This document shows positions 22,161 to 33,167 of a DNA stretch of 64,000 nucleotides, in pieces; positions within the stretch are counted from its first letter, which is position 1; every line of letters starts with the position of its first letter. The notes below the pieces were generated by a model. It was not told where the DNA came from, made no database searches, and saw nothing but the letters and a program-made list of their open reading frames with translations. The DNA is taken from contig CAVSGI010000001.1 in NCBI GenBank assembly GCA_963727445.1, forward strand, positions 396 to 64,395, in the 5' to 3' direction. This stretch comes from an uncultured delta proteobacterium. GTDB taxonomy: Bacteria > Myxococcota_A > Polyangia > Polyangiales > B10-G4. The translations under genes were made by a program, and so were the position numbers.

Positions 22161-23100
22161 TGAGACAGCTTCCATCAGGTAAATAGTGAGGGTGGAGGAG
22201 ATGACGTCAGCATGGATCAACACGTTCACGGATCGGTACAGGGCTCGCCAGGGCCGCGTCTAGGTCACGGCGCTTCATCGACACCTCGCCGGCGCAGATC
22301 TGGGCGACGATGGTCGACGAGGGCGTGTACGTCGCGTCGATGCGCACGATGTACCGTGTCCTGGGCGGCCAGGGCGAAGTCCGGGAGCGTCGCGACCAAC
22401 GCCGTCATCCTCCAGCGATGACGCCAGACGGTCCGAACCAAGCCTGGAGCTGGGACATCACGAAGCTCCGGGGACTACGCCCGTACGAGGCCTTCTACCT
22501 GTACGTGATCCTCGACATCTTCAGTCGCTTCGTCGTGGCGTGGATGCTCGCGAAGCACGAGCGGGCGACGTACGCGACGAATCTCATCGAGCGAGCCTGC
22601 GAGGCGGAGGGGATCGAACCGGGGCAGCTGGTCCTTCACTCCGATCGCGGCTCGCCGATGACCGCGAAGCCCGCGGTCGCGCTCATGGGTCAGCTCGGCA
22701 TCGACCCGAGCTACAGTCGGCCGCGAACGCCGAACGACAACCCGTACAGTGAGTCGCACTTCAAGACCTTGAAGTACCGGCCCGAGTACCCGGGCAGATT
22801 CGGCTCGTACGAGGACGCTCACGCGTACTGCTGCGACCTGTTCCCCTGGTACAACCACGAGCATCGGCACTCCGCGCTCTGCTGGCTCACGCCCGCTGCC
22901 GTCCATCACGGCCGCGCCGATGCCATCCTCGACGCGCGGCAGCGCACCATGCTCGAGGCCTACGATGCGCATCCTGAGCGCTTCGTCCACGGCCCCCCGC
23001 GGGTCCGCCGCCTCCCCGAAGAGGTGTGGATCAACCAGCCGACATCGGCGATTCAGATCGAAGGATCAGCTCACTGAAATTCATGAAACGAGCTGTCTCA
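22161..23100 (+). mobile_element. IS3-family insertion sequence remnant (about 0.94 kb, orfA and the 5' part of orfB deleted)
   Basis: Ends TGAGACAGCT (22161-22170) and AGCTGTCTCA (23091-23100) form a perfect 10-bp terminal inverted repeat (TG...CA). They extend imperfectly to about 30 bp. The element encloses an rve/DDE orfB fragment. No target-site duplication is seen. Confidence 0.75.
22205..23077 (+). pseudogene. IS3-family transposase OrfB (integrase core), 5'-truncated
   Basis: ..RFIDTSPAQIWATMVDEGVYVASMRTMYRVLGGQGEVRERRDQRRHP..PNQAWSWDITKL..FYLYVILDIFSRFVVAWM..LHSDRGSPMTA..SYSRPRTPNDNPYSESHFKTLKY..YNHEHRHSAL. DDE residues are present. There is no OrfA/HTH and no plausible native start. 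Confidence 0.85.
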
Positions 23101-25676: not shown

Positions 25677-26336
25677 ATGCGCCGCGCTCTCCGCGCCAGC
25701 AGGCTCGTCGCCTCGGTGGTCGCCACCTTCATCTATCTCGCCTTCGAGGAAGCGGTGCGGGCCTCCCAGGAGCGCGCCGCCGAAGCCAGAACCGCCCTCG
25801 ACCAGCCCCGCGCCGACGCGACGAATACCCTGTCGGTGCACGATCGCCCCACCCTGCCCGGCACGGTGGAGGCGCCGATCCGAGACCTGGTGGCGATGTC
25901 GCCGGTGATCCGCGTGATCGAGCCCGCCGCTGCGCCTCCCCGCCCCGCGGTGCTCTTCGAGGCCCCCGATGCCCGGGAGCGCGAAGAGCGCGCGCCCGAC
26001 GTGGCCACGCTGCTGTCGACGCTGCGCCGCGACGTCGGCTGCACGACGAAGGCGAACGCCACGCACGAGGCGTGTCGCGCCGCGGAGACCCTCGGCGACC
26101 TCCTGGACCGCGACGCGGTGCTCGAGGCGCTCGAAGAGACCGTCACCGCGGCGCGCCGTCCGGATTGTGTGCGGCGCGCCTCGGCACGCGCCCTCGGACG
26201 ATCGTCCCGCGCCGCGGCCCGGAGCGCGCTCCTGCGCATGCTCGCCGTCGCCAGGGGCCGCGCCGAGTGGAGCGGCAGCCGGACGGAGAAGGATCTGGTC
26301 GCGCTCCTCCTCCGCACCCTCGACGCCGCGGCCTGA
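25677..26336 (+). CDS. Hypothetical membrane-anchored protein with a HEAT-like C-terminal repeat
   Basis: N-terminal anchor LVASVVATFIYLAF. The C-terminus ..EACRAAETLGDLLDRDAVLEALEE..VRRASARALGRS..ALLRML is reminiscent of HEAT/PBS-lyase repeats. The assignment is weak. Confidence 0.45.
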   Translation: MRRALRASRLVASVVATFIYLAFEEAVRASQERAAEARTALDQPRADATNTLSVHDRPTLPGTVEAPIRDLVAMSPVIRVIEPAAAPPRPAVLFEAPDAREREERAPDVATLLSTLRRDVGCTTKANATHEACRAAETLGDLLDRDAVLEALEETVTAARRPDCVRRASARALGRSSRAAARSALLRMLAVARGRAEWSGSRTEKDLVALLLRTLDAAA

Positions 26337-26383
26337 GCGCCCGATAATCCGCGCGCGGGGCGGAAGCGAGCCGAGGAGGGCCG

Positions 26384-27394
26384 GTGAGAGCGTGGAAAAT
26401 CGAAGGGAGCTTCGGCGTCGAGAACCTGAAGCTTCACGAGGAAGAAGACGAGGCGCCGCAGCACGGGCAGGTGCGCCTGTCGATGCGCGCCTGGTCGCTG
26501 AACTATCGCGACCTCCTGATGGTCCGGGGCGAGTACGACCCGCGCCTTCCGCTGCCGCACGTGCCCCTCTCCGACGGCGTCGGCGTGGTGGAGGCGGTGG
26601 GCTCGGGCGTGAGCCGGGTGGCCGAGGGCGACCGGGTGCTGCCGATCTTCGCGCAGAAGTGGTTCAGCGGCACGCCCACCAAGCGTGAGCTCATGTCGGC
26701 GCTCGGCGGCTCCATCCCCGGCACGCTCCGCGAATCCATGATCGTCTCCGAGGAGGCGGTGGTGAAGGCGCCCGCGCACCTGAGCGACGCCGAAGCGGCG
26801 ACGCTGCCCTGCGCGGCGCTCACCGCGTGGAGCGCGCTGGTCGAACAGGGCGAGCTCAAGGCTGGCGAGACGGTGCTCATTCAGGGCACGGGCGGGGTCA
26901 GCATCTTCGCGCTCCAGATCGCGAAGATGTGCGGCGCGCGCACCATCGTCACCTCGAGCAGCGAGGAGAAACGCCAGAAGGCGAAGGCGCTGGGCGCGGA
27001 CGAGACGATCGATTACCGCGCCGACCAGAGCTGGGGACGCACCGCCAAGGCGATGAGCGGCGGCGAAGGCGTCGACCACGTGATCGAGGTGGGCGGCGCG
27101 CGAACCATCGAGCAGTCCGTGCGCGCCGTGAAGCCGGGCGGCCAGATCTCCGTCATCGGCAACCTCTCCGGCAACACCGCCGAGGTGAACCTGGTCTCGA
27201 TCCTGATGCGCAACGTGCGCGTCCAGGGGGTCTTCGTCGGCCACCGCGATGGCCTCACCCGCATGTGCCGCGCCTTCTCTCAGCACACCCTTCGGCCGGT
27301 CGTGGACCGCACCTTCCCCTTCGAGCAAGCGCCCGCCGCATTCGAGCACCTGGCGAGCGCCGCCCACTTCGGCAAGATCGCCATCGCGCGTTGA
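26384..27394 (+). CDS. Medium-chain (zinc-type) alcohol dehydrogenase / NADPH:quinone oxidoreductase family protein
   Basis: MRAWKIEG..VRLSMRAWSLNYRDLLMVRG..PLSDGVGVVEAVGSGV..GDRV..; Rossmann motif VLIQGTGGVSIFALQIAK; 336 aa. Confidence 0.92.
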   Translation: MRAWKIEGSFGVENLKLHEEEDEAPQHGQVRLSMRAWSLNYRDLLMVRGEYDPRLPLPHVPLSDGVGVVEAVGSGVSRVAEGDRVLPIFAQKWFSGTPTKRELMSALGGSIPGTLRESMIVSEEAVVKAPAHLSDAEAATLPCAALTAWSALVEQGELKAGETVLIQGTGGVSIFALQIAKMCGARTIVTSSSEEKRQKAKALGADETIDYRADQSWGRTAKAMSGGEGVDHVIEVGGARTIEQSVRAVKPGGQISVIGNLSGNTAEVNLVSILMRNVRVQGVFVGHRDGLTRMCRAFSQHTLRPVVDRTFPFEQAPAAFEHLASAAHFGKIAIAR

Positions 27395-27433
27395 TCGAGG
27401 TGGTGGGACGGTCGTAGGCTCCCGCTCCTGAGC

Positions 27434-29293
27434 ATGAGCGTTCGGGACCCCTTCGCAGAGGACGCCAAGGCGCTCCACATCGAGATCGACGCGATCCTGG
27501 CGAAGGACCTCGACGACCTCGCCCTCCGAGACGCGCTCGAGGCGCTCGAAGAGCGCAAGGCGATCCACCTCGTCTACTACCGGCTGATCCGCTCGCTGCT
27601 CGAAAAGAACCCGGTGGTCTTCGGGCCCCTCGTCCGACCGCGCCTCGACTCCTGGGGCTACGACCGCAATGGGAAGTGGCATCACCCCTGGACCAACGAC
27701 GAGGGCAAGCGCGATCTCGCCTTCATCCTGAAGCTCGCCGAGGAGCGCGGGGATGACGCGCTCTTCAAGCGCGCGATGCTCGTCTATCTCGATCGCGCCA
27801 AGTGGAAAGACCGTAACGCGCTCTTTCAGAAGGAGCTCCTCGCCCGCCTCGAGGGAGCCGCCGAGCCTCACGAGCGCGCTTCCGTCTTGTCGCGCTTCGA
27901 CCGGCTGGGCGTCCTCGACGACGACACGGCCCTCACCATCTACGCGGCGGCGCCCCTCGCCGGCCGGTCCTTCATCAGCCGTCACCTCCCGTGGCGGCCC
28001 TGGGGCACGGACGACGTCGATTTGTTGCCGAAGCTCCTCGAGGAGACGCGCGATCGCGATCCCGACTTCTACTTCGAGCTCTACCGCCGCCTCGCGGGGG
28101 ATGCGACCTGGGCAAGGGACGTGGACGTCGTGCTCCGCGAGGCGAGCGACGACGCGCTCGCGGCGGAGCTCGAGAAGCTCCACCCGCAGCGCTACGTGAA
28201 GAACGCGGCGAAGGTCTTCGCCAAGGCGCTCAAGGAGCGCGACGACGCGGCGCTGCCCTACGTGAGCCGCCACGTGGACGCGGTCGTGCGGGGCTTCTTC
28301 GGCCGGGGCGAGTACGGGGATCTCCTGCGCATCGCCTATGACCGCGGCTACGACACGCTCTGGGCGGGGCTCCTGCGCCACGCCGCGCCGCCGAAGGACT
28401 GGAACGCCGAGGTCCGGCGGCTCGCAGAGGTCCGTCGTGACGGCGGCGATGCGCGACGGCGCCTGCTCCTCCTCGCCGGCGCCGGCCGCGAGCTCAGCCT
28501 GCCGGGCCTGGGCCTCGCGCGGTTGCAGCCCCTCGAGGACGACACGGCGGTGCTGCTCTTCGAGCGATATCCCGAGCTGCTCCGCGGGCCCTTCAAGCGC
28601 AACATCTTCGGGGGCTGGCACCAGCCCTACACGAAGCTCGTCGCGCGCGTCCTCGCGGAGGGGGACGAGCTCCTGATCGACTTCCTCGCGAGTCGCTTCG
28701 TCACCCGCGGCGGTCCCTACATGAACGAGAAGGTGCTGGCCTCCGCGGCGACGCTGTCGAAGCACTACGAAGCGCTCCGCGGCGACCCGGTCGCCTTCGC
28801 CGAGCGCGCGGCGAACGTCCTCGGCCAGGTGCCGCCCTTCGTGATCTACGCCTACGAGCTTCTGCTCGAGACGAACCGCCTGGCGCGGCTCCTCTACGAG
28901 CACGCGGCCCGGGACTATCTCGCGAGCCCCGTCGCGATCCGCGATCTTCTCGAGGCGCCCGAGATCCACGCGCAGCGCCTCGCGTTCCTCGCCCTCTCGC
29001 TCGACGACGAACGCGCCCGTACCCTCGGCGCGGCGAATCTCGATCTCCTCGCCGCGACGCTCCTGCGCCCACTCCACCGGCGGACCCGGCTCCTCGCCAT
29101 GGACGCGCTCGACAACGCCGCGCGCGATGAGGCGACGGCCGCGCGCGTTCTTCACACCGCGCGCGAGGCGATGTTCCTCCCCGACGTGCGTTACCCGAAG
29201 GAGGAGCTGGTCGGGCTCCTCGGGCGCATCCTCCATCGGCACGCGAGCCTCCGCAGCGAACGCGAGCGGCCGGTCGTCTACGGGAGGGCGTGA
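27434..29293 (+). CDS. Retron-associated large alpha-helical repeat protein (candidate ARM-like accessory protein)
   Basis: Intact 619-aa ORF. Leu/Ala/Arg/Asp-rich helical periodicity throughout, with no signal peptide or catalytic motif recognised. The stop overlaps the next start (ATGA at 29290). Confidence 0.7.
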   Translation: MSVRDPFAEDAKALHIEIDAILAKDLDDLALRDALEALEERKAIHLVYYRLIRSLLEKNPVVFGPLVRPRLDSWGYDRNGKWHHPWTNDEGKRDLAFILKLAEERGDDALFKRAMLVYLDRAKWKDRNALFQKELLARLEGAAEPHERASVLSRFDRLGVLDDDTALTIYAAAPLAGRSFISRHLPWRPWGTDDVDLLPKLLEETRDRDPDFYFELYRRLAGDATWARDVDVVLREASDDALAAELEKLHPQRYVKNAAKVFAKALKERDDAALPYVSRHVDAVVRGFFGRGEYGDLLRIAYDRGYDTLWAGLLRHAAPPKDWNAEVRRLAEVRRDGGDARRRLLLLAGAGRELSLPGLGLARLQPLEDDTAVLLFERYPELLRGPFKRNIFGGWHQPYTKLVARVLAEGDELLIDFLASRFVTRGGPYMNEKVLASAATLSKHYEALRGDPVAFAERAANVLGQVPPFVIYAYELLLETNRLARLLYEHAARDYLASPVAIRDLLEAPEIHAQRLAFLALSLDDERARTLGAANLDLLAATLLRPLHRRTRLLAMDALDNAARDEATAARVLHTAREAMFLPDVRYPKEELVGLLGRILHRHASLRSERERPVVYGRA

Positions 29294-30876
29294 TGTTCGT
29301 CGCCGTCGACTACGCGAGCCCCAGCGCTCTGGTCAGCACCCGCAAAGACAGCGCCCTCGATCTGCGGAGCGACGGCACCCGACCTGTGCGCCTGCACGCG
29401 CGCATCGAAGAGCCCTACGTGCTGCCGGTGCGCCTGGCGCTACGCGCGCTCGGCGAGGTGGTCTGGTCGGACGATCGCTGGGTGGACGACATGTGGTACG
29501 GGTTCATCCTCGACCCGGTCGTCACCGTCCACGACGACCGCGTCTTCTTCGAGGCGTTCAGCCAGGACCAGAGCGCCTACGGGTTGGTGATCCTCGATCG
29601 CGCCGTGCTCGAGACCGAGGGCGAGGTGGTCATCGGCACCACCAACGTGGACTTCACCGCCTGGCTCTGGGCCGCGCTCGGCGAGATGCGGAGCAGCCGA
29701 ACGACCTGGCTGCGCGTGGGGCCGGAGGGGGTCGAGGTGCGCACCAGCGGCGGCGGCAGCCGCTTCGAGCCCAAGGTGGAGATCCCCGACCACTGGGTGC
29801 GCGGCTTTCTCCAGATGCAGGCGGCGGCGGCGATGCCGGGCACGCGCCTCGTGTTGAAGCCGGTGGACCTGCTCTCCGCGATCCGCTACCTCCGCTACAC
29901 CAAGGCCAAGGTGAGCCCCCGCGCCCTGCGCTACGAGATGCCTCCCGGCGAGGACGCGCGGTTGGTGATCGAGCCCTTCGAGCACGTGGTGCCGCTGCGC
30001 GGAGCGGACCACGGCCGTGAAGAGGAGCGCGTGATCCGCACCTGGGGCCGGCGCCGGCTCCGCCTCCTCGAGCCGCTGCTCCCCTACGCGGACGAGGTGC
30101 GCGTCTACCTCAAGGGTCGCGCGCTGCCGAGCTTCTACGCCGCCCAGCTGCCCGGGGTGACCTTCGTCCTCGGCCTCACCGGCTGGACCGCGAACAGCTT
30201 CACCCGGAGCGGGGGGCACGATCTGGCCACGGGCATCGAAGATGCGGACGAGCGGCTGGTGAACGCCGCGATCGAGGCGCTGCGCGCGCGGCAGGCGGCG
30301 ACGGCGGAAGAGATCGCGCGCGCCATCTCGGCGCCGCTGCCCGAGGTGGACCGCGCGCTCGCGCGCCTCTGCCGGCGCGGCCGGGCCATCTTCGACGTCG
30401 AGGCGCGCGCCTATCGCCATCGGGAGCTCTTCGCCGAGCCGCTGGATCTGAAACGGGAAGCGGAGCTCTTCCCGCCGGACCGGCGACGCGCCGAAGCGCG
30501 CAAGCTCCTCGACAGCGGGGCGGTCGAAGTCGAGTCGGTCGCCGTGGAGCAGACCAGGAAGGTCCGAAAGCTGAAGACGCCCGAGGGTCGGGTGACCCGC
30601 GAGGTGGTGCACCGCGACCATCGGGTGCGCGGGAAGATGCCCGGCGTGACCCGCACCGAGATCGTCGTCGCCGAGAGCGGCCGCGTGATCTTCGGCACCT
30701 GCAGCTGCCCCTTCTTCGCGGACAACCTCCTGAACCGTGGACCCTGCGAGCACATGGTGGCGCTCCTCGAGGCGAGCGCGAAGGAGCGCAAGGACGCGCC
30801 GACCTCCACTGAGGCGTCGGGCGACGCGAGCCAGCCAGCGCCGCCGCGACACGACAACCACGGAGAGGACGCATGA
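29290..30876 (+). CDS. Retron-associated SWIM zinc-finger protein
   Basis: 528 aa. The C-terminal CSCPFFADNLLNRGPCEHMVAL fits the SWIM CxCx(n)CxH signature. It ends 25 nt before the msr/msd inverted repeat. Confidence 0.85.
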   Translation: MMFVAVDYASPSALVSTRKDSALDLRSDGTRPVRLHARIEEPYVLPVRLALRALGEVVWSDDRWVDDMWYGFILDPVVTVHDDRVFFEAFSQDQSAYGLVILDRAVLETEGEVVIGTTNVDFTAWLWAALGEMRSSRTTWLRVGPEGVEVRTSGGGSRFEPKVEIPDHWVRGFLQMQAAAAMPGTRLVLKPVDLLSAIRYLRYTKAKVSPRALRYEMPPGEDARLVIEPFEHVVPLRGADHGREEERVIRTWGRRRLRLLEPLLPYADEVRVYLKGRALPSFYAAQLPGVTFVLGLTGWTANSFTRSGGHDLATGIEDADERLVNAAIEALRARQAATAEEIARAISAPLPEVDRALARLCRRGRAIFDVEARAYRHRELFAEPLDLKREAELFPPDRRRAEARKLLDSGAVEVESVAVEQTRKVRKLKTPEGRVTREVVHRDHRVRGKMPGVTRTEIVVAESGRVIFGTCSCPFFADNLLNRGPCEHMVALLEASAKERKDAPTSTEASGDASQPAPPRHDNHGEDA

Positions 30877-30901: not shown

Positions 30902-31057
30902 GACCGGTGAGGAGCTCGAAGCGAGATCAGCCTTCTGCGCGGTGTTTCGCCGTGCTGGCGTATTGAGCTCATCACATCGCCGCGGTCCCAGCGCACGAAA
31001 CGCCGGGAGCCACGGGTCCAGGGCCCCGAGAGTGGTCCTTCGGGTTCCTCACCGGTC
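30902..31057 (+). ncRNA. msr-msd: Retron msr-msd non-coding RNA (template/primer for msDNA)
   Basis: A 20-bp inverted repeat (30902-30921 / 31038-31057) closes a 116-nt structured region 22 nt upstream of a retron RT. Both DNA mismatches become G.U pairs only in the + strand transcript. AAGCGAGA follows the 5' arm. Internal hairpins lie at 30937-30955 and 30980-31015. Confidence 0.7.
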
Positions 31058-31078: not shown

Positions 31079-32359
31079 ATGAGCCTCCTCAGGCGCTTCC
31101 TCTCCTTCTTGTGGCGCCTCTTCTTCGCCTCGAAGAAGCTCGAGCGGCGCACGACGCGCCACGGCCAGGGCGACCTCGATCAGACCCACGAGGAGGTCGA
31201 TCTCTCGGGCGGTCCGCTCAAGCCCGCGCATCGACGCAGGGCGCTCCACGACCCGCGTCTTCTTCCAAAGCCCGCGCGAAAGAACCCCTGGGAGAAGCCG
31301 CCGAAGGTGATGGACGCCGACGAGGCCGGCCGCCTCTTCGCGCCGACGATGCGCACCAAGAGCCGGCGGCTGCGCACCCTCGTCGCCGACGAGGAGCAGC
31401 TCGCGCGTCACGACCTCCCCGCCTGGAAGAGCGAGGCCGAGGTCGCAGCGGCCCTCGGCGTGACCCGCGGCGAGCTGCGTCATTTCAGCATTCATCGCCA
31501 GCGTGAGCGCACCCCCCACTACGTGACCTTCGCCGTGCCCAAGCGGAGCGGAGGCGAGCGATTGATCTGCGCGCCGAAGGCGCAGCTCAAGGCCTTGCAG
31601 CGAACGCTCCTGAAGGAGCTCATCGAACACCTTCCCGTTCACGACGCGGCCCACGGCTTCCGCAAGGGCCGCTCGGTGCGCACCGCCGCCGAGGCGCACG
31701 TCGGCCGCGCGGTCGTCGTGCGCATGGACCTGCGCGACTTCTTCGGAACAGTCACCTTCGTGCGCGTGCGCGGTTACCTGGTGGCGATGGGTTATGGCTA
31801 CGAGGTCGCCACCATCCTCGCGGTGCTGATGACGGAGGCGCCACGCCAGCCGGTGGCCGTGGGAGACGACGTCTTCCACGTCCCCGTCGGCCCGCGGAGC
31901 GCGGTGCAAGGTGCGCCCACCAGCCCCGCGATCTGCAACGCGATCGTCCACAAGCTCGACGCGCGCCTCTCGGGCCTCGCCGCCGCGCTCGGGTTTCGGT
32001 ACACCCGCTACGCGGACGACCTCACCTTCTCCAGCGACGATCCCGAACGGGTCGGCCGGTTGATGCACGCCGTGCGGGAGATCGTGCGAGACGAGGGCTT
32101 CGCGCTCAACCGCGACAAGACGCGGGTCATGCGCAAGGGCGGCCACCAGACGGTCTGTGGCGTCACCGTCAACGAGACGCTCGGGCTCAGCCGAAAGACG
32201 CGCAAGAAGCTGCGCGCGATGATCCATGCGGAGAAGCAGAGTCGTGACCGTGGCGAGGCCGACGCCTCGCGCACGGCGATGATCGAGGGCTGGCTCGCCT
32301 ATCTGTCGATGCTCAATGAAGAGCAGGCCGAGGCGCTCCGCGTGCGCTGGGTCAGCTGA
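31079..32359 (+). CDS. ret: Retron-type reverse transcriptase
   Basis: YVTFAVPKRSGGERLICAPKAQLKALQRTLL (RT1-2), AHGFRKGRS, RMDLRDFFG, LPQ-type block VQGAPTSPAICNAIVHKLD (retron NAxxH), FRYTRYADDLTFS (YADD), VCGVTVN (retron VTG-like block). There is a roughly 110-aa N-terminal extension. 426 aa. Confidence 0.93.
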   Translation: MSLLRRFLSFLWRLFFASKKLERRTTRHGQGDLDQTHEEVDLSGGPLKPAHRRRALHDPRLLPKPARKNPWEKPPKVMDADEAGRLFAPTMRTKSRRLRTLVADEEQLARHDLPAWKSEAEVAAALGVTRGELRHFSIHRQRERTPHYVTFAVPKRSGGERLICAPKAQLKALQRTLLKELIEHLPVHDAAHGFRKGRSVRTAAEAHVGRAVVVRMDLRDFFGTVTFVRVRGYLVAMGYGYEVATILAVLMTEAPRQPVAVGDDVFHVPVGPRSAVQGAPTSPAICNAIVHKLDARLSGLAAALGFRYTRYADDLTFSSDDPERVGRLMHAVREIVRDEGFALNRDKTRVMRKGGHQTVCGVTVNETLGLSRKTRKKLRAMIHAEKQSRDRGEADASRTAMIEGWLAYLSMLNEEQAEALRVRWVS

Positions 32360-33167
32360 GCTCGTCGTTCAACAGGTCGAGTCGGGCGAGGCCCGGCTTC
32401 AGCTGCTCGCGCCAGCACCGCTCGAAAACCAGCACCTGACGCACGGGCGAGAAGAGCCCGAGGGCGGCGCGCGCCGGCTCGGGGTGGGCGTCGAGGGTGC
32501 GCGCGTCCTCGCCCACCTCGCGAAGGATCCGCGCGGCCTGCTCGCGATGCGGCGCGACGGTGGTCGCCACCAGATGACGCCAACTCGTGAGCGTCGAGGG
32601 ACGAAAGCGCTTCAGCGACTCCTCGACGTAGGCCCAACCGAATCGCTGGTGGCCCTCTTCGTCGGCGACGGTCGCGTCCAGCACCCGGCGCACCGCACCA
32701 TCGGGACAGCGCTCGCGCAGGTCCTCCACGAACGCCACCGAGATGGTCTCGTTGATGAGGAGCATCGAGATCGCCGTGGTGAGCGCGCGCTCGGGCATGG
32801 GCGCGCGGAGGTAGCGCTCGGGATCGCGCAGCTCGACGGGGTCCGGAAGCATCGGCGTCGCCCCGAGGGCCTCGCAGAGCGCCGCGCAGAGCGCCGTGTG
32901 CCGGATCTCGTCCACCACCAGGTCCGCCGCGCCCGCGTAGACCTCCAGAGGATCGCCCGCGCCGACGACCTCGGAGGCGAAGCGCGTCATGATCTGGATG
33001 GAGCGGAACTCGGTGCGCACCCGCTGCTGCCAGGTTCGGCGCGCCTCCTCGAGGAGCGACGGATCGTGCGCCTGCGGATCGAAATCCGACAGGTCGACGC
33101 CATCCCCCAGCACCTCGGCTGAGAGCGCCGCGAAGGGTGGTCCAGCGCGCATGAGCGGACGGGCCAT
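32352..33167 (-). CDS. Ferritin-like (di-iron carboxylate type) domain protein
   Basis: Two ExxH motifs in helical context (LVVDEIRHTA, VADEEGHQRFGW) plus LINETISVAFVEDL. 271 aa. The 3' end overlaps the RT 3' end by 8 nt (convergent). Confidence 0.6.
   Translation of the reverse strand: MARPLMRAGPPFAALSAEVLGDGVDLSDFDPQAHDPSLLEEARRTWQQRVRTEFRSIQIMTRFASEVVGAGDPLEVYAGAADLVVDEIRHTALCAALCEALGATPMLPDPVELRDPERYLRAPMPERALTTAISMLLINETISVAFVEDLRERCPDGAVRRVLDATVADEEGHQRFGWAYVEESLKRFRPSTLTSWRHLVATTVAPHREQAARILREVGEDARTLDAHPEPARAALGLFSPVRQVLVFERCWREQLKPGLARLDLLNDELS

Follow-up and report, generated by a model that had tools for sequence, protein, structure and literature searches.

How would a retron act when neither of the two genes that accompany its reverse transcriptase (RT) encodes a recognisable enzyme? 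This question is raised by a locus in a 64,000-nucleotide stretch of DNA, here called the window, from an uncultured delta proteobacterium of the Polyangiales (GenBank assembly GCA_963727445.1, contig CAVSGI010000001.1, positions 396 to 64,395 of the forward strand). In the window, the gene of a 619-amino-acid protein and the gene of a SWIM zinc finger protein stand in front of a putative retron non-coding RNA (ncRNA) and the gene of an RT. We found that these two genes are, with near certainty, the standard accessory pair, and presumed effector pair, of a retron of the already classified type XIII. For the way in which the pair acts, we tentatively prefer a model in which a predicted clamp-like protein and a predicted alpha-solenoid would bind nucleic acid together.

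Identity of the cassette

The RT ranks the PADLOC model RT_XIII at the top of 74 RT models, and the SWIM protein matches the model SWIM_XIII (E-values in Table 1). Retron type XIII was defined by Mestre et al. 2020 (NAR 48:12632, PMC7736814) and includes Retron-Mxa1/Mx162, Mxa2/Mx65, Nex2/Ne144 and Sau1/Sa163. Its hallmarks are an RT of clade 10, a distinct ncRNA and a SWIM protein of cluster 114_1 in which a DEDE motif and a winged helix are combined with a zinc finger of the form CxCx12CxH; a HEAT/ARM protein is usually encoded upstream of the SWIM gene, and the function was given as unknown (PMC7736814). The cassette in the window agrees with this composition, with an RT of the RT_XIII clade, a putative ncRNA between the accessory genes and the RT, a cluster 114_1-like SWIM protein with all three features and a predicted HEAT/ARM-type protein encoded directly upstream. 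It differs in its solenoid, which belongs to a 619-amino-acid, AgmJ-type family of which none of 38 members is detected by the WGR_XIII and HEAT-ARM_XIII models of PADLOC v2. That a winged helix and SWIM protein is preceded by a HEAT/ARM protein was therefore known (PMC7736814), and what we add is the prediction of a clamp fold, a sister module without RT, the link to the name AgmJ and the finding that AgmJ-type solenoids are missing from the PADLOC models.

The RT carries the Pfam domain RVT_1 with NAxxH and YADD motifs, and its best relatives in the PDB are the RTs of the retrons Ec86, Ec78 and Ec67. The RVT_1 domain is preceded by an N-terminal extension of about 140 amino acids (31079-31500), which is conserved in a planctomycete orthologue (DPRLLPK, TMRT..R, LP.W.SE). 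The nearest homologues come from metagenomes, and those from myxobacteria and planctomycetes are next in line.

An earlier note on this DNA, made from the sequence without database searches, had proposed the two open reading frames (ORFs) and their role as a retron accessory module together with an RT. Both ORFs were confirmed at the coordinates in Table 1, the RT is borne out by RVT_1, RT_XIII and the YADD motif, and the role as an accessory module agrees with the SWIM_XIII and RT_XIII matches and with the conserved gene order described below. The 4-nucleotide ATGA overlap that the earlier note had read between the two genes has to be corrected. The junction reads GGGCGTGATGTTC, in which GTGATG and no ATGA is present, and the stop codon TGA of the solenoid gene lies at 29291-29293. 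The SWIM gene may start either with GTG at 29290, giving a GTGA overlap of 4 nucleotides, or with ATG at 29293, giving an overlap of 1 nucleotide. Homology favours the ATG at 29293, with M-I/F-V as the N-termini of the family. In many related loci the ORF ends are consistent with a 4-nucleotide overlap of the ATGA type, and the tight coupling of the two accessory genes by overlapping stop and start codons still stands.

Conservation of the gene order

A scan of one genome per species (185,579 species genomes) gave 293 relatives by pattern matching, and the gene order was counted in the best 80 of these 293 loci. In 77 of the 80, the order solenoid, SWIM, gap and RT is kept on one strand, and the remaining three loci are cut by contig ends. 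The loci belong to at least six phyla, with members in Planctomycetota, Verrucomicrobiota, Myxococcota, Alphaproteobacteria, Acidobacteriota and one Flavobacteriaceae metagenome-assembled genome (MAG). The same layout is also present in Archangium, in variants with a long solenoid, in Clostridium and in Methylobacterium, and frameshifted or short RTs occur in three of the related loci. The close orthologues of the pair are linked to an RT without exception.

The cassette region has a GC content of about 70%, and we considered whether the two ORFs are chance open frames of such a genome or unrelated neighbours of the RT. High GC content does yield long spurious ORFs, for example an antisense ORF of 1169 amino acids at 25733-29242. 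Against this reading stand full-length homologues with E-values from 0 to 1e-80, the synteny in 77 of 80 loci and the confident structure models of both proteins. The homologues and the conserved synteny rule it out for all practical purposes, and they make the functional link of the pair to the retron a strong one.

The SWIM protein

More than 1025 homologues of the SWIM protein were found, with 55-60% identity across phyla. Its C-terminal zinc finger is annotated by the Pfam SWIM model (PF04434) above the gathering score and has the form C470-x-C472-x12-C485-x-H487, of which all four ligands are invariant in 36 sequences. The finger had been recognised in the earlier note as the only motif of the pair. 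This second part did not hold, as the protein also has a winged helix and a predicted PCNA-like clamp fold.

The AlphaFold2 (AF2) model of the SWIM protein, built with 36 sequences, has a predicted local distance difference test score (pLDDT) of 78.6 and a predicted template modelling score (pTM) of 0.77, and most of the clamp-like region is modelled at a pLDDT of 80-96. Residues 30-300, approximately, are built in this model from two copies of a beta-alpha-beta-beta-beta type domain. When it was compared with the PDB using Foldseek, the best 50 matches were all chains of PCNA or sliding clamps (E about 1e-8, probability 1.00, TM-score on the target 0.62-0.72, about 285 aligned columns). The best matches in BFVD were viral PCNA, phage beta-clamps and a herpesvirus processivity factor. 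Residues 30-300 are thus predicted to adopt a fold like that of PCNA and sliding clamps, in which the repeats of the clamp domain fold are present.

The clamp-like region is followed by a MarR-like winged helix, long beta-hairpins (412-460) and the SWIM finger. In the protein of the window the winged helix gives weak Pfam hits (TrmB, HTH_Cmi2_C), in 9 of 36 SWIM homologues MarR/HTH_24 hits down to 2e-6 were obtained, and the model has the pattern H-H-H-E-E. Arginine and lysine residues that are invariant or nearly so are found on helices of the clamp-like region (R47, R133/R136, R170, R198/R201/K204 and R253-R255). In the model these helices correspond in their order to the DNA-facing helices of clamps, which would fit DNA binding.

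Compared with PCNA, other clamps and the monomeric factors of the herpesvirus UL42 type, the predicted fold spans a whole PCNA protomer and likewise bears basic residues on its helices. In contrast to clamps, the domain shares its chain with a winged helix and a SWIM finger and has invariant acidic motifs, and no clamp loader or polymerase partner other than the RT is present here. The invariant residues of the clamp-like region are D74, D82-R83, E87, S90, D92, T116-T117-N118 and D120, and E159 is nearly invariant. Some of them make up the DEDE motif, which has the spacing D74-x7-D82-x4-E87-x32-D120-x38-E159 and is invariant or nearly so in 36 sequences. D74, D82-R83, E87, S90, T116-N118, D120 and E159 are kept in a Streptomyces homologue without RT that is only 29% identical, while D92 is not. 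Since they are retained in a homologue that has no RT, the conserved acidic and polar residues appear to serve a core function of the SWIM protein itself rather than contact with the RT.

The N-terminal tail (29293-29376, residues 1-28) has low pLDDT and carries an invariant D-Y-A-s-P-S motif (Y7, A8, P10, S11), followed by R30 and R33. The motif can be recognised in the Streptomyces homologue without RT (FAYARPSS), and it resembles a peptide by which a partner is docked. We also considered a 17-residue beta-hairpin extension as a feature that tracks the presence of an RT. This was rejected, as an RT-linked SWIM protein of 490 amino acids lacks the extension too.

Search for a catalytic domain

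In agreement with the earlier note, no P-loop, nuclease, protease, TIR or other enzyme family was found in either protein by Pfam, NCBIfam, PADLOC, PDB sequence searches or Foldseek. Transmembrane segments were not found either, judged by the sequences and the soluble-looking models of both proteins. There is no NCBIfam model for either protein and no solved structure of either in the PDB, and PDB sequence and profile searches returned nothing significant, with weak winged helix matches (MarR, eS25, Z-alpha) at E > 0.05. The statement that the pair lacks a catalytic domain is hence supported by database and fold searches. It is contested in the literature, where the SWIM protein is listed among putative nucleases on account of a DEDE motif resembling that of IS256/Mutator transposases (PMC7736814). 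With the predicted structure as its basis, the fold search favours the reading without a catalytic domain over the nuclease reading of Mestre et al.

The solenoid protein

For the 619-amino-acid protein, 41 full-length matches were found by word-seeded search and 433 homologues by an exhaustive profile search. Its AF2 model, built with 38 sequences, has a pLDDT of 93.2 and shows a continuous alpha-solenoid of about 39 helices with a single beta-hairpin at 350-364. The protein is thus almost wholly alpha-helical, as the earlier note had it. Foldseek returned generic HEAT/ARM proteins only (AP2, importins, CAND1, condensin Ycg1, beta-catenin and designed armadillo proteins, TM-score about 0.2), and we predict that the protein is a HEAT/ARM alpha-solenoid. 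Of the folds that the earlier note had considered for the pair, a HEAT/ARM solenoid of the generic kind is accordingly seen in the model of this protein and a winged helix, MarR-like, in the homologues and the model of the SWIM protein. No Pfam HEAT or ARM repeat was found by sequence in the solenoid family. Conservation is highest in the C-terminal third, where the basic motif LLRPLHRRTR is invariant.

No Pfam, NCBIfam or PADLOC model matches the 619-amino-acid protein, nor do any match the 38 members of its family. PADLOC-DB v2 has a WGR_XIII and three HEAT-ARM_XIII models, none of which detects AgmJ-type solenoids, the Myxococcus proteins included. Automated annotation would therefore report AgmJ-type type XIII retrons without their first accessory gene.

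The solenoid varies among type XIII retrons. Long solenoids of about 1100 amino acids carry the 619-amino-acid family as their C-terminal half, and SWIM and RT genes also follow them. We rejected the possibility that these long relatives are fusions of SWIM protein and solenoid, as the extra N-terminal part of about 540 amino acids is unrelated to the SWIM family. The type XIII solenoids of Methylobacterium and Clostridium match WGR_XIII, and no homology was detected between the Methylobacterium protein and the 619-amino-acid family, a weak negative from a single-sequence-versus-profile hhalign comparison. The solenoid can thus be exchanged for another, and the SWIM protein stays constant.

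UniRef and NCBI list the orthologues in Myxococcus and Corallococcus under the names 'Adventurous gliding motility protein AgmJ' or 'gliding motility protein'. The agm genes stem from a transposon screen for adventurous motility (A-motility), and agmJ seems to encode the solenoid of a type XIII retron. If polar, an insertion in agmJ would also affect the SWIM gene, the ncRNA and the RT. In the literature searched, an AgmJ phenotype was not found.

The ncRNA

The gap between the SWIM gene and the RT gene is 202 nucleotides long and holds a 20-nucleotide inverted repeat, a2 at 30902-30921 and a1 at 31038-31057, with 90% complementarity, as would be expected for the a2/a1 stem of a retron ncRNA. 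The a2 repeat starts exactly 25 nucleotides past the stop codon of the SWIM gene, which is the distance that the earlier note had given between the SWIM gene and the ncRNA. The region enclosed by a2 and a1 has a minimum free energy of -105.6 kcal/mol (z -4.8). When 12 intergenic regions from five phyla were aligned, 11 of them shared long conserved blocks and hairpins, and compensatory changes occur in 9 of the 28 predicted pairs. Conserved blocks within 30902-31057 are for example GCCGCGGTGTTTCGCCGCGG, TCACATCGCC and GAGTCCAGAGC. A scan of the intergenic region with Rfam detected no retron family and gave only chance hits to miRNA and snoRNA families.

The primary sequence of the ncRNA is conserved over Myxococcota, Planctomycetota, Verrucomicrobiota, Alphaproteobacteria and Acidobacteriota. 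Retron ncRNAs do not usually show conservation of this kind. The conservation suggests that the sequence of the msr, or of the multicopy single-stranded DNA (msDNA) made from the ncRNA, may itself be recognised. The proteins of the cassette differ in their conservation, as the identity to the orthologues of a planctomycete (Phycisphaeraceae) is 58% for the SWIM protein, 53% for the RT and 36% for the solenoid. A very conserved, putatively DNA-binding protein beside a very conserved msDNA template would fit specific recognition, and a fast-evolving solenoid would fit a sensor or adaptor surface.

Relatives without a reverse transcriptase

Full-length homologues of the SWIM protein, about 29% identical, are also encoded in loci without an RT (hhalign probability 99.9; SWIM_XIII 6e-51). 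By a 4-nucleotide overlap, the SWIM gene of these loci is followed by genes for one or two helical proteins of about 800-880 amino acids with DUF6493, DUF7824 or DUF7825, some of them with HEAT repeats. These pairs were found by tblastn against plasmids, on a Streptomyces plasmid and a Diaphorobacter plasmid, and also in Streptomyces chromosomes. The sister family of SWIM proteins without RT comprises at least 3785 clusters at 90% identity, and the module is very common in Streptomyces. On the Diaphorobacter plasmid an integrase and a VapC/Phd pair are its neighbours. Relatives are encoded in none of the phage records, and we found no literature on the SWIM-DUF6493 module.

The pairs of Streptomyces and Burkholderiales share with the retron pair the full-length SWIM homology and the 4-nucleotide overlap with a gene for a large helical-repeat protein. 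They differ in that the RT and ncRNA are absent, the gene order is reversed with the SWIM gene first, and the partner is not detectably homologous; the latter comparison, between the DUF6493 solenoid and the 619-amino-acid family, is again a weak negative from single-sequence-versus-profile hhalign. The clamp-SWIM and solenoid pair has a function that is independent of an RT, and type XIII retrons carry the pair plus RT and ncRNA. The retron pair probably derives from a free-standing module of a SWIM protein and a DUF6493-type solenoid or shares an ancestor with it. The earlier note had held that a housekeeping family present without RTs in most genomes would speak against a retron role. The distant Streptomyces sister family, at about 29% identity, touches on this point, and the close orthologues are all RT-linked.

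One metagenomic locus (L082, 6001-12915) encodes a long solenoid of 1133 amino acids and a SWIM_XIII protein of 495 amino acids, with no RT called downstream. The two genes are separated by genes for an aldo-keto reductase, an acetyltransferase and a 126-amino-acid protein, and the locus gives the impression of a type XIII cassette that has decayed or been rearranged. An ORF of 96 amino acids behind its SWIM gene was considered as a remnant of an RT and rejected.

Proposed mechanism and alternatives

The model that we favour, with a confidence that falls a little short of an even chance, is a nucleic-acid-binding complex of clamp-like protein and solenoid that would be assembled on the RT and its msDNA and would contain no classical enzymatic toxin. 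The clamp, winged helix and SWIM protein would bind nucleic acid, the likeliest ligand being the msDNA and msr of the retron itself at their duplex stem and junction, and the solenoid would wrap the complex as a scaffold, a sensor surface or both. Solenoid, SWIM protein and RT would assemble into a ribonucleoprotein, as other tripartite retrons do. Once a phage, for instance, disturbs the msDNA or the complex, the effect of the module would come from its binding to DNA or to host proteins and not from a toxin of the classical kinds (nuclease, NADase, protease or membrane toxin). The sensor or scaffold complex binding msDNA that the earlier note had put forward is consistent with the clamp, winged helix, SWIM and HEAT/ARM folds as predicted. 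Its derivation from a free-standing module, or from an ancestor shared with one, would parallel the co-option of Septu by type I-A retrons. In the type I-A retron Ec78, too, an RT-msDNA cassette goes together with a module of two proteins that is known on its own as well. As PtuAB consists of an ATPase and an HNH nuclease, neither of which is recognisable here, the analogy is evolutionary and not mechanistic. A more specific version, in which a non-replicative effector of sliding-clamp fold, winged helix and SWIM finger clamps nucleic acid together with the HEAT solenoid and was co-opted by retrons from a much larger group of clamp-SWIM and solenoid gene pairs, present in thousands of Streptomyces genomes, is possible but rather doubtful.

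Several points weigh against the favoured model. The clamp assignment comes from a predicted model and a comparison of folds, the identity in the structural alignments with clamps is only 7-16%, and no PCNA or DnaN match was found by sequence in Pfam or in PDB sequence and profile searches. As this link is missing at the level of sequence, we call the region clamp-like and do not file it as PCNA. Invariant acidic and polar residues in such a pattern are moreover what one would sooner expect at an active site or a metal site than on a surface that passively binds DNA, and the protein may be a cryptic enzyme. In this alternative, the SWIM protein would be a metal-dependent nuclease with DEDE as the catalytic tetrad of an IS256/Mutator-type transposase, held inactive by RT and msDNA until infection, and the solenoid would be its regulator. 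The deep conservation of DEDE, retained as it is in the Streptomyces homologue, speaks for a nuclease, as does the fact that most characterised retron effectors are enzymes. Like the SWIM protein, eukaryotic Mutator-like element (MULE) transposases bear a C-terminal SWIM finger with an acidic motif upstream (PMC7736814). Yet the region of the motif is predicted to be a PCNA-like clamp and not the RNase H-like fold of the DDE transposases of MULE/Mutator and IS256. The 50 best matches in the PDB are without exception clamps or processivity factors, as are almost all of the 50 best among the viral models, with no transposase, nuclease or RNase H-like structure among them, and no transposase or nuclease family was detected by sequence in Pfam or PDB profiles. 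Judging from the secondary structure, D82 would be at the tip of a hairpin and D74 and D92 at its opposite end, so that a single tetrad appears geometrically unlikely. Overall, we consider a cryptic nuclease unlikely.

Other observations count against a role in defence. Trees of type XIII correlate with 16S (0.78), which its authors took to suggest vertical inheritance and domestication (PMC7736814). The neighbouring genes in the window, which encode TPR proteins, a Zn-dehydrogenase, a chlorite-dismutase-like protein and a peptidase M2, are housekeeping-like and form no defence island, and no copies of close relatives were found on phages or mobilisable plasmids. Taken together, these three observations weaken the defence framing. 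The cassette could instead be a domesticated, vertically inherited cellular module, for instance of DNA metabolism or regulation, and not act by abortive infection; the msDNA and the clamp/solenoid complex would serve a function of the host, of which A-motility (AgmJ) would be one read-out. The high conservation of protein and ncRNA sequences across phyla would fit such a role, and so would the AgmJ name of the myxococcal orthologues and the RT-less pairs, which many Streptomyces chromosomes carry at about 80% identity with metabolic genes around them. On the other hand, only 293 relatives in 185,579 species genomes, scattered over phyla, make a patchy spread of the kind that accessory or defence genes typically show. 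An integrase, a toxin-antitoxin pair or a DNA methylase adjoins some of the RT-less relatives, the cassette in the window has an insertion sequence (IS) integrase and a GC step about 4 kb upstream, and the motility phenotype lacks a report in the literature searched. To our knowledge, all experimentally studied retron types are defence systems, which further counts against domestication, and on balance we think it improbable. The pair might also consist of factors of msDNA biogenesis, with the clamp-like protein as a processivity or termination factor of the RT and the solenoid as a loader or chaperone. Clamps and the monomeric herpesvirus factors of clamp fold, which are among the fold matches, are processivity factors of polymerases, type XIII includes long msDNAs of 144-163 nucleotides, and the RT was found to co-evolve with the solenoid (PMC7736814). 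This is quite improbable, however, given that homologous SWIM-solenoid pairs are present in thousands of genomes without an RT, so that processivity of the RT cannot be their core function. Also against it, myxobacterial msDNAs have reportedly been made with msr, msd and RT only.

Coordinates and neighbourhood

The features of the cassette are listed in Table 1, together with the positions of the RT-less modules in their own loci. In the annotated loci inspected (L001, L083 and L089), no conserved fourth gene was found downstream of the RT. In the window, long ORFs at 32316-33122 (+) and 32352-33167 (-) follow or overlap the end of the RT gene; they have no Pfam, PADLOC or NCBIfam match and are probably outside the cassette. 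Promoter and terminator scans were uninformative in this sequence of 70% GC.

An IS-type integrase ORF (Pfam rve 1.4e-21, rve_3) is located at 22310-23077 (+), about 4.4 kb upstream of the cassette, and the GC content steps from about 0.65 to about 0.72 near 23.5 kb. In an Archangium MAG locus (L003; 446-2080, 7611-9077), a second, more distant RT (E 3e-77) lies about 3.5 kb upstream of the type XIII cassette.

Table 1. Features of the type XIII retron cassette in the window, and RT-less modules in related loci
Feature	Coordinates	Strand	Evidence
619-amino-acid HEAT/ARM-like alpha-solenoid gene (accessory protein 1), predicted	27434..29293	+	ORF, AF2, Foldseek, homologues
Clamp-winged helix-SWIM protein gene (accessory protein 2), 527 amino acids (528 from GTG 29290)	29293..30876	+	PADLOC SWIM_XIII 9.4e-142
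Predicted two-domain PCNA-like clamp region, SWIM protein residues ~30-300	29380..30192	+	AF2, Foldseek
Winged helix (MarR/HTH_24-like), SWIM protein residues ~315-376	30235..30420	+	Weak Pfam hits, homologue hits, model
SWIM zinc finger CxCx12CxH (C470, C472, C485, H487)	30682..30774	+	Pfam PF04434 6.3e-5
Putative retron ncRNA (msr-msd), a2 to a1 repeats	30902..31057	+	Inverted repeat, fold, conservation
Retron reverse transcriptase, 426 amino acids	31079..32359	+	Pfam RVT_1 1.1e-23, PADLOC RT_XIII 1.4e-131
RT-less module loci (positions in each locus)	L087 6767-10827; L088 6989-13322; L091-L093 7001-11058		

Implications for type XIII retrons

Type XIII includes Mx162, the first retron ever described. 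The literature searched gives structures or mechanisms for several other types (I-A, II-A Ec86, type VI, Eco2, Eco8 and type IX), and no type XIII mechanism or clamp fold of a retron was reported in it, nor did it yield experimental data on toxicity or phage protection for type XIII. The predicted clamp favours assays of DNA and msDNA binding, oligomeric state and clamp loading over nuclease assays alone, and the RT-less SWIM-DUF6493 pairs are a simpler system in which to find the core activity. The name AgmJ links the solenoid gene to an old motility screen in Myxococcus and thereby to a possible phenotype that retron researchers may have missed. If the clamp-SWIM protein is indeed an effector that acts by clamping nucleic acid, its ligand would be the msDNA, or chromosomal or phage DNA once released. 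It would then represent an effector class new to bacterial immune or conflict systems, in which the clamp fold is put to a biological use of a new kind.

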